A stretch of DNA of 64,000 nt from Euglena gracilis (GCA_039621445.1 CP154954.1:21774954-21838953), one strand, 5' to 3'. Shown: positions 54,480 through 55,651, numbered from the stretch's first letter. Program-made: numbers and translations. The notes: generated from the sequence alone by a model not told the origin.

Positions 54480-54571
54480 GAGACGGTGGAGCACGTGATG
54501 CAGAAGCGGCAGGAGCAGATCAAGGCACTGGCCAAGCCTGCCGTGACGCTGTCGGAGACCGGCCGCAACCT
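54480..54571 (+). CDS. Gene X exon ETVEHVMQKRQEQIKALAKPAVTLSETGRN(L)
   Basis: CTCAG acceptor, phase 0; GC3-rich; ends at the MITE. Confidence 0.88.
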
Positions 54572-54574
54572 GGT

Positions 54575-55612
54575 CAGACATTCATTTAGTGTGGTACACC
54601 AAGGTGGTCATTTTGTGGTTCACTGTGGACACCACAAAAAATTTTGTGGTTCACCTGTGGACACCAAAAATTTTTTTGCGGTTCACTTGTGGACACCAAA
54701 AAATTTTTTGTGGTTCACCTGTGGACACCAAAGTAATATTTGTGGTTCACATGTGGACACCAAAAAATTTTCCACCGCCTGCTGACATTTGCATCATTTT
54801 CTTTCTCATCAACAGCAATGAAGCAATCTTCTTTGAACATGTTTGACTCAGGCGGTGTAAGTTGGCCCAAAATTCTGGTGCTCTAAAAACAGAAGAGGAA
54901 GCGGAAAACCACTTCCAAAAAAGGGTCATAGTTTTCGATTTTTTTTTTGAGGAGGTTCTGATTTTACCAATACAGTCGAAAACAGACCTAAGAAGGCCAA
55001 TTTACTTTCGAATTCTAGTAATCAACAAAACCAATCAAGAAATATATGAACAGGAGGAACCGACAAAAACAAGCGTTGTTTCTGCTGCCGTAGGCCCCGA
55101 AGGAACGAAACAGAAAAATTAAAAAATGGAAGCGGTAAATATTGCATTCCGCTTCAAAAGCAGGAGATGTGCAACGAAAACTGAACGCAATGAATCATAC
55201 ATAATGTAATGTAAAAAATATGCATAATGTTTGCACACCAAAAAGGAAGCGTAAAACCGCTTTGAAAGAATCCGTAAAAAAAATAGTATGAATTGAAATG
55301 ATCAACAATGATCACCAAACGATATTCCAATCCCAATAACAACGAAGAACGTTAACATTTGTGGCTGAGGTGTCTAAAGATCAATCCGCCTTTAGGTGTA
55401 AATTTAATTTTTTTCGATCCTCAATGAATTTTTGTGGACCACAAAATTTTTTGTGGACACCACAAAAATTTTTGTGGTTCACTTGTGGACACCAATAATT
55501 TTTTTGTGGTTCACCTGTGGACACCAAAAAAAAATTTGTGGTTCACCTGTGGACACCAGAAAAAAATTTGTGGTTCACACGTCTTTTGTGAACCACACTA
55601 AATGAATGTCTG
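54575..55612. mobile_element. Young hAT-type MITE in coding sequence; predicted nonconventional intron 54572-55617
   Basis: 21-bp perfect TIR CAGACATTCATTTAGTGTGGT / ACCACACTAAATGAATGTCTG; perfect TSD AACCTGGT at 54567-54574 and 55613-55620; ~30-bp subterminal repeats TTTTGTGGTTCACCTGTGGACACCA at both ends. Confidence 0.96.
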
Positions 55613-55617
55613 AACCT

Positions 55618-55651
55618 GGTGCGGAACCGGGGGAAGAAGATGCTGAGCCTC
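55618..55651 (+). CDS. Gene X micro-exon (L)VRNRGKKMLSL
   Basis: In frame after MITE removal; all 11 codons end in G or C; followed by C|AGC-CAG, a nonconventional-type donor. Confidence 0.6.

Follow-up and report, generated by a model that had tools for sequence, protein, structure and literature searches.

A high-copy terminal-inverted-repeat (TIR) transposon with CAG...CTG ends interrupts an internal coding exon of a Euglena gracilis gene that is expressed. The transposon was probably inserted recently and is probably removed from the transcript without a scar by nonconventional splicing. Scarless splicing of this copy is a prediction rather than a demonstration, based on the comparison of the geometry of the insertion with the published code of nonconventional introns. 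The locus belongs to a 64,000-nt stretch of the genome assembly (GCA_039621445.1, CP154954.1:21774954-21838953), referred to as the window, and all positions are counted from its first letter. Of 24 listed sequencing runs, four were mapped to positions 48400-57400: raw reads of the RNA runs X21 and X24, contigs of the presumed-RNA source X15, and the DNA run X1.

Structure of the inserted element

Two perfect copies of the 8-bp target-site duplication (TSD) AACCTGGT, at 54567-54574 and 55613-55620, enclose an element of 1038 bp (54575-55612) with a GC content of 37%. Its TIRs, 54575-54595 and the reverse complement of 55592-55612, are identical at 21 of 21 bases. A search for the TIR gave two matches within the window, compared with zero expected from 100 shuffles. 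The subterminal regions contain arrays of 32-bp units, with five copies at 54610-54767 and four at 55452-55578, and the 23-nt core of the array occurs seven times in the window, each time inside the element. The length of 1038 bp, the perfect 21-bp TIRs, the subterminal arrays, and the perfect TSD had been reported in a preliminary description of the locus and are all confirmed by sequence analysis. The element had also been called pristine there, which is correct for the TIRs and the TSD but not for the body, in which six or more listed sites of this copy depart from the majority sequence of the family (54606, 54679, 54856, 54868, 55426, and 55496). The features of the locus are as follows.

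54480-54574, + strand: upstream part of the interrupted coding exon (translation and GC3; RNA pieces start at 54488)
54567-54574: left TSD copy AACCTGGT (direct-repeat search; coincides with the 8 ambiguous bases of the joint)
54572-55617, + strand: predicted nonconventional intron, 1046 nt (geometry compared with the code in PMC12501133; the exon would resume with G at 55618)
54575-55612: non-autonomous TIR transposon (MITE), high-copy, 1038 bp, 37% GC (structure, read depth, and loose ends)
54575-54595, + strand: left TIR, starts with CAG (21/21 against the right arm)
54610-54767: left subterminal array of 32-bp units, five copies (repeat search)
55452-55578: right subterminal array of 32-bp units, four copies (repeat search)
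55592-55612, - strand: right TIR, ending in CTG on the + strand (21/21 against the left arm)
55613-55620: right TSD copy AACCTGGT (direct-repeat search)
55621-55651, + strand: downstream part of the interrupted exon (translation; the right side of the RNA joint is 39 letters long, 55613-55651)
55652-56354, + strand: neighbouring nonconventional-type intron, AGC-CAG...CTG-TCTCG and then G (5' end from the ends of RNA pieces, 3' end inferred)
56355-56390, + strand: next small exon, 36 nt (keeps the frame; the depth of the X15 bin 56226-56526 corresponds to about 34 nt after 2 ambiguous letters)
57234-57375, + strand: downstream exon of the same gene (X15 contig piece 57232-57375), followed by a GT-AG intron, 57376-57796

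The interrupted exon and its gene

The flanks of the element are coding, with a GC content of about 60%. On the upstream side, positions 54480-54572 are free of stop codons and encode 31 residues almost exclusively by codons ending in G or C. Downstream, positions 55622-55651 form an open frame of ten residues, which is also GC3-rich. The codon that spans the insertion site is split by the element into GT (54573-54574) and G (55621), and read-through from the exon into the element reaches a stop codon at 54783-54785. A conventional-looking acceptor, composed of a pyrimidine tract and AG at 54478-54479, precedes the interrupted exon. The right side of the RNA joint ends at 55651 in all three RNA sources (X21, X24, and X15). 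The interrupted exon is internal and not terminal, since an intron of the nonconventional type follows its end at 55651.

The gene is on the + strand, is expressed, and is composed of many small exons, as shown by the X21, X24, X15, and X1 sequences mapped to 48400-57400. One X15 contig with a length of 1394 nt contains pieces that map to 51423-51523 and 57232-57375. A loose end at 48871 continues into an exon that ends at 46859, and another at 50853 continues at 50478. Beyond 57375, a further loose end continues at 57806-57826, and the start of the exon there was placed at 57797 from the AG at 57795-57796. A protein search with a query of 40 residues, nine of them intronic and 31 exonic, returned 18 candidates among longer proteins, none with E <= 0.1, and Pfam recognised zero families in four exon peptides of the gene. 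Upstream of the interrupted exon, the summed X1 depth in the segments 52313-53215 and 53818-54419 ranges from thousands to 166,000, indicating that the large intron of the gene is made of other high-copy repeats.

Fit of the insertion to the nonconventional-intron code

Nonconventional introns of euglenids were described by Milanowski et al. 2014 (PMC3935182) and are reported to be excised as circular RNA (PMC11282704). Knock-in experiments in E. gracilis yielded the code 5'-N3 CDG...CH'G N5-6, with a purine (R) as the first base after the cut (Nomura et al. 2025, PMC12501133). According to the same paper, the 3-nt spacer at the 5' end is strict, and the sequences that follow CAG and precede CTG must pair. 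Five natural and five fully synthetic 50-bp introns that obey the code were removed by splicing when placed in a foreign exon of E. gracilis. Intron-retaining transcripts with premature stops were lost (PMC12501133).

The predicted cuts in the transcript of the interrupted exon are located after 54571 and before 55618. The first three intron bases would be GGT (54572-54574), followed by CAG at 54575-54577, which corresponds to positions +4 to +6. At the other end, CTG at 55610-55612 occupies positions -8 to -6 and is followed by the five-base spacer AACCT (55613-55617) and by G at 55618 as the purine of the downstream exon. The arms pair at 21 of 21 positions, and folding of 54555-55632 yields the terminal stem in the MFE structure as well as in the centroid structure. 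None of the nine registers allowed by the TSD, which were enumerated, has GT-AG or GC-AG borders, and read mapping gives CT..AC ends at the cut shifted by +3. Judged from sequence and predicted folding, the insertion agrees with every sequence and pairing item of the code in PMC12501133. The likeness to euglenid nonconventional introns, as described in PMC12501133 and PMC3935182, includes CAG at +4 to +6, CTG at -8 to -6, the 3-nt and 5-nt spacers, and the downstream purine, as well as a pyrimidine followed by a purine at both cuts, a stem joining the ends, the absence of a GT-AG register, and direct repeats at the borders. In contrast to the nonconventional introns described in these papers, the one considered here is an intact high-copy transposon with a full 8-bp TSD, which a second genome labelled as the same species lacks, and its removal is predicted.

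The two spacers, with three and five bases, add up to the eight bases of the TSD and correspond to its two halves. Therefore, the predicted cut would remove the element together with exactly one TSD copy and leave no scar. The preliminary description had proposed both the euglenid geometry, with CAG at +4 to +6 and CTG at -8 to -6, and the scarless outcome, and this reading of the geometry is borne out by the comparison with the code. By the same arithmetic, the scarless property would extend to every element with CAG...CTG ends and an 8-bp TSD whose sixth target base is a purine.

The transcript of the interrupted gene contains a nonconventional intron that conforms to the code, 31 nt downstream of the insertion, with its 3' end inferred. 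In the range 55685-57400, a single CTG partner has at least 8 of 12 pairs to the 5' end of the intron at 55652, and it is followed by TCTCG and G at 56355. A search for a TSD relic at the borders of this intron (55652-56354) found agreement at one of eight positions, so that no trace is left. Another intron of the gene, 50479-50852, is documented by six X21 reads. Its borders share the 4-nt repeat CGCC, and none of its five registers reads GT-AG or GC-AG. It does not follow the CAG/CTG code and was rejected as evidence of transposon origin, about which it is uninformative. The junction between 50478 and 50853, which lacks GT/GC-AG borders, together with the code-type intron 31 nt downstream of the insertion indicates that this genome uses nonconventional introns of the euglenid type.

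The junction in RNA and the transposon-free allele

The predicted joint from 54566 to 55613 skips 1046 bases, with eight bases being ambiguous. It is present in 11 X21 reads, three X24 reads, and one X15 contig. The same joint is also present in the DNA run X1, in one contig with a depth of 73.5, a value comparable to those of eight listed unique X1 contigs (32-74). X1 covers all 30 of 30 bins, including those free of RNA, and together with the contig depths of 32-74 this coverage indicates that X1 behaves as genomic DNA.

The joined X1 contig carries two SNPs, 54527 A>G and 54533 C>A, which precede the joint by 33-39 nt. The letters of this transposon-free contig at the two positions are found in 14 of 17 X21 reads, in three of three X24 reads, and in the X15 contig, whereas the remaining three of 17 X21 reads have the letters of the window. 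The occurrence of the joint in DNA and the linked SNPs show that the RNA junction is explained by a transposon-free allele and provides no evidence for splicing. Thus, the junction that the preliminary description expected in RNA is found in X21, X24, and X15, but it is uninformative about splicing because the same joint occurs in X1 DNA with the linked SNPs. The empty allele called for in that description exists, in the form of the transposon-free site in the X1 contig. No X21, X24, X15, or X1 sequence connects the junction with the allele that carries the transposon.

The joined X1 contig runs unbroken from 54488 across the joint to 55651, and an X1 contig identical to the window starts at 55622, 30 nt before 55651. 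The start at 55622 is presumably a branch point of the k=31 contig graph. The lack of an X1 contig break at the TSD hints that X1 is devoid of the filled form, with contigs showing presence and not absence. The ends of the joined contig at 54488 and 55651 coincide with RNA ends, and it was considered whether the contig could represent a processed retrocopy or cDNA. This origin is less likely, since no X1-supported exon-exon joint is found among the 15 joints listed of 96, several of which such joints should have preceded in rank, and since the X1 contig start at 55622 is what a graph branch would produce. Retrocopy or not, a transposon-free copy exists in DNA. Among the same 15 of 96 joints, no back-joint of the kind that would mark a circular intron is found.

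Excision of a transposon usually leaves a footprint. The empty site is precise, with one TSD copy and no footprint, which suggests an allele that was never occupied rather than one produced by excision. The insertion is young and polymorphic, being present in the window and absent from the DNA run X1.

Retention of this copy of the element in RNA is not seen at three diagnostic sites. The constraint is weak, as the insertion may be absent from the RNA strains and transcripts that retain it may be degraded. At 54606, the letter of the family and not that of this copy is present in 7/7 X21 and 5/5 X24 reads; the corresponding counts are 3/3 and 7/7 at 54679, and 6/6 and 2/2 at 54856. For 54400-55900, the run index lists no run recorded as RNA; six presumed-RNA runs contain 0.36-0.39 of its words, and four raw RNA runs were assigned by species label.

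Alternative explanations

It is possible, but rather doubtful, that the insertion has created a loss-of-function allele. The element would then remain in the transcripts or be removed poorly, the transcripts would stop and degrade, and the cell would live on one or more transposon-free alleles, which would be the source of all junction reads. The joined form in DNA agrees with such a null allele, as does the distribution of its SNPs over the three RNA sources, in which the allele of the window is in the minority (3/17 X21). This share, nevertheless, is not clearly below an allele share of one-third. The stop codon at 54783-54785 would make retained transcripts subject to the loss of premature-stop transcripts reported in PMC12501133, and other copies of the family remain unspliced in RNA, as seen in reads that cross the boundary of the element. 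Nevertheless, the insertion agrees with all items of a code that was sufficient for the splicing of synthetic introns from a foreign exon (PMC12501133), and the same pre-mRNA has a code-conforming nonconventional intron 31 nt away.

Removal by the conventional spliceosome, from a donor GT at 54573 within the TSD to an AG further downstream, would produce an altered exon and is very improbable. The GT at 54573-54574 does exist, and the preliminary description had itself raised it as a caveat. However, no register of the TSD is of the GT/GC-AG type, the 3' end of the element is without AG or a pyrimidine tract, and the only joint at the site among the 15 listed of 96 is the scarless one, although its reads come mainly from the empty allele.

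An assembly artefact, in which a repeat copy was misplaced into the exon and no filled allele is real, is scarcely credible: X1 shows only the empty form at the site and the listed DNA runs contain at most 0.74 of the words of 54400-55900, but contigs show presence and not absence, the perfect 8-bp target duplication and the precise ends are a signature of transposition and not of misassembly, and the letters of the window at 54527 and 54533 do occur in 3/17 X21 reads.

The element family

The summed depth of X1 contigs is 134,000-420,000 across the element and about 50-250 in neighbouring unique bins. Although such a depth does not equal a copy number, it suggests that the family has thousands of members. 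The flanks of other family copies diverge exactly at 54575 (14 X21 reads) and exactly at 55612 (16 X21 reads, 15 X24 reads, and 18 X1 contigs), which fixes the ends of the element independently of the TSD.

In the stranded run X24, the reads from the right end of the element (55323-55623) are nearly one-stranded, 11.4 versus 0. These reads carry the rare variant 55483 C in 11/11 cases, which accounts for about 3% of the DNA depth, and they also diverge at 55360. They seem to originate from a related subfamily copy that is highly expressed elsewhere in the genome. The strand bias was considered as a sign of a promoter within the element, which was rejected, since 55483 C in 11/11 reads shows that few loci dominate.

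The window was scanned without regard to terminal sequence for perfect 8-bp direct repeats that flank arms with at least 12 of 14 pairs. The scan gave 47 matches, 43 of them inside microsatellite arrays, and zero matches in five shuffles. The four matches outside microsatellites are 3777-4066, 5780-5992, 10398-10703, and 54575-55612. All four start with CAG; three end with CTG and one with CCG. Two more CAG...CTG pairs in the window have TSD identities of 6/8 and 5/8. CAG-ended elements with an 8-bp TSD therefore recur in the E. gracilis genome.

A GC-rich MITE family with a length of about 250-310 bp and ends of the form CAGGCT(T/G)(C/T)TTTTT... is represented at 3777-4066, 10140-10391, and 10398-10703, and the sequence at 16044-16329 is merely related. 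The 8-bp TSD is perfect in two of these four elements, 6/8 in one, and 5/8 in one, and the copies within 10140-10703 are positioned almost back to back. The 213-bp element at 5780-5992 has CAGGG...CCCTG ends with 14/14 terminal pairs and a perfect 8-bp TSD, ACCGTCCC; it represents a third CAG-ended family.

MITEs of the hAT superfamily have 8-bp TSDs, short TIRs that start with YARNG, and subterminal repeats that bind the transposase. The inserted element shares with them the 8-bp TSD, the 21-bp TIR starting with CAG, the subterminal arrays, the non-coding character, and the high copy number. Compared with YARNG, its terminal CAGAC fits at positions 1-3, whereas the fifth base is C and not G; the element at 5780, which starts with CAGGG, fits the consensus. 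Based on TSD length, CAG termini, and subterminal repeats, the element is plausibly hAT-like, as it was named in the preliminary description. No hAT transposase or autonomous partner is present in the window, in which the long open frames give only retrotransposon RNase H. Scanning of metagenomes with the 21-nt TIR and of the window with Rfam each gave zero matches.

Merlin elements, a superfamily of DNA transposons with 8-bp TSDs and near-perfect TIRs, are present in E. gracilis, and some Merlin families have internal tandem repeats (PMC8101967). The superfamily is described as having TSDs of 8-9 bp and a conserved 5'-GG at the ends of the TIRs (PMC8101967). The TSD length of the inserted element fits this description, but its TIR starts with CA and not with GG.

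Proposed mechanism and its relation to introners

Scarless nonconventional splicing of the recent insertion would proceed as follows. It starts from the recent arrival of a non-autonomous TIR DNA transposon in the internal exon of the expressed + strand gene. With CAG at its start, CTG at its end, and a target duplication of 8 bp, the insertion automatically builds the signal of a nonconventional intron, in which a 3-nt spacer, CAG, the paired terminal stem, CTG, and a 5-nt spacer are followed by a purine. A nonconventional route that recognises this structure should then cut after 54571 and before 55618, and the removal of the element with one TSD copy would restore uninterrupted codons. The analogy to the knock-ins is limited by size, as these were short introns, with the synthetic ones of 50 bp (PMC12501133), compared with a structured element of 1 kb here.

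The idea that MITEs seed nonconventional introns is not new. A MITE-like origin was proposed in 2013-14 (PMC3935182), and the hypothesis was repeated in papers from 2018, 2024, and 2025; repeats resembling TSDs at intron borders were noted in a 2024 review. In 2013, according to PMC3935182, no euglenid transposon was known, and the origin of the introns is still called unclear in PMC12501133 from 2025. In the freely accessible full texts that were searched, we found no source family, no polymorphic insertion, and no link of the 3-nt and 5-nt spacers to an 8-bp TSD. The present locus offers a candidate for the source family and an insertion whose empty site is known. It also provides the arithmetic link 3 + 5 = 8 and makes the long-standing question of origin directly testable.

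Introner elements are transposon-derived spliceosomal introns found in Micromonas, Aureococcus, and dinoflagellates (PMC11282704). Like the element described here, introners are non-autonomous TIR transposons in exons, the TSD provides part of the splice signal, and the element is removed with one TSD copy so that the coding sequence is restored (PMC11282704); in the present case, this removal is predicted. Introners differ in that they use the spliceosome and GT/GC-AG borders (PMC11282704), which are lacking here, where a structure-dependent nonconventional route is expected.

Tentatively, the nonconventional code can be considered the RNA image of a transposon end, with the 3-nt and 5-nt spacers as the halves of the 8-bp TSD of CAG...CTG elements and with the locus described here as a newborn, polymorphic example from a family of thousands of copies. 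If this were true, every CAG...CTG insertion with a purine as the sixth target base would be born as a scarlessly removable intron, and the nonconventional pathway would perform "precise excision" at the level of RNA. It would also explain the rise of nonconventional introns to 72% of all introns in E. agilis, the share given in PMC12501133, and extend the introner principle, that a transposon and its TSD make an intron, to a non-spliceosomal route.

Other features of the window

An open frame of 376 residues at 2257-3387 on the + strand contains an RT_RNaseH domain (Pfam E = 4.8e-08) and represents part of the pol gene of a retrotransposon. At 40852-42121, there is an inverted repeat of about 1.27 kb. 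Its arms pair over 14 of 14 positions or more at various depths, such as 40947 with 42028, and it is flanked by inverted rather than direct repeats. Very long microsatellite and minisatellite arrays occupy 28600-33300, 35568-36314, 57443-57574, and 59256-61700. The units of the arrays are (TA/TG)n, a 19-bp unit, (CA)n, and (ACAT)n, and they give rise to long spurious open frames. The strongest GC3 signal of the window is at 4646-4903 on the + strand, where the end of the encoded peptide has a motif that we take to be typical of the C-terminus of PP2C phosphatases.
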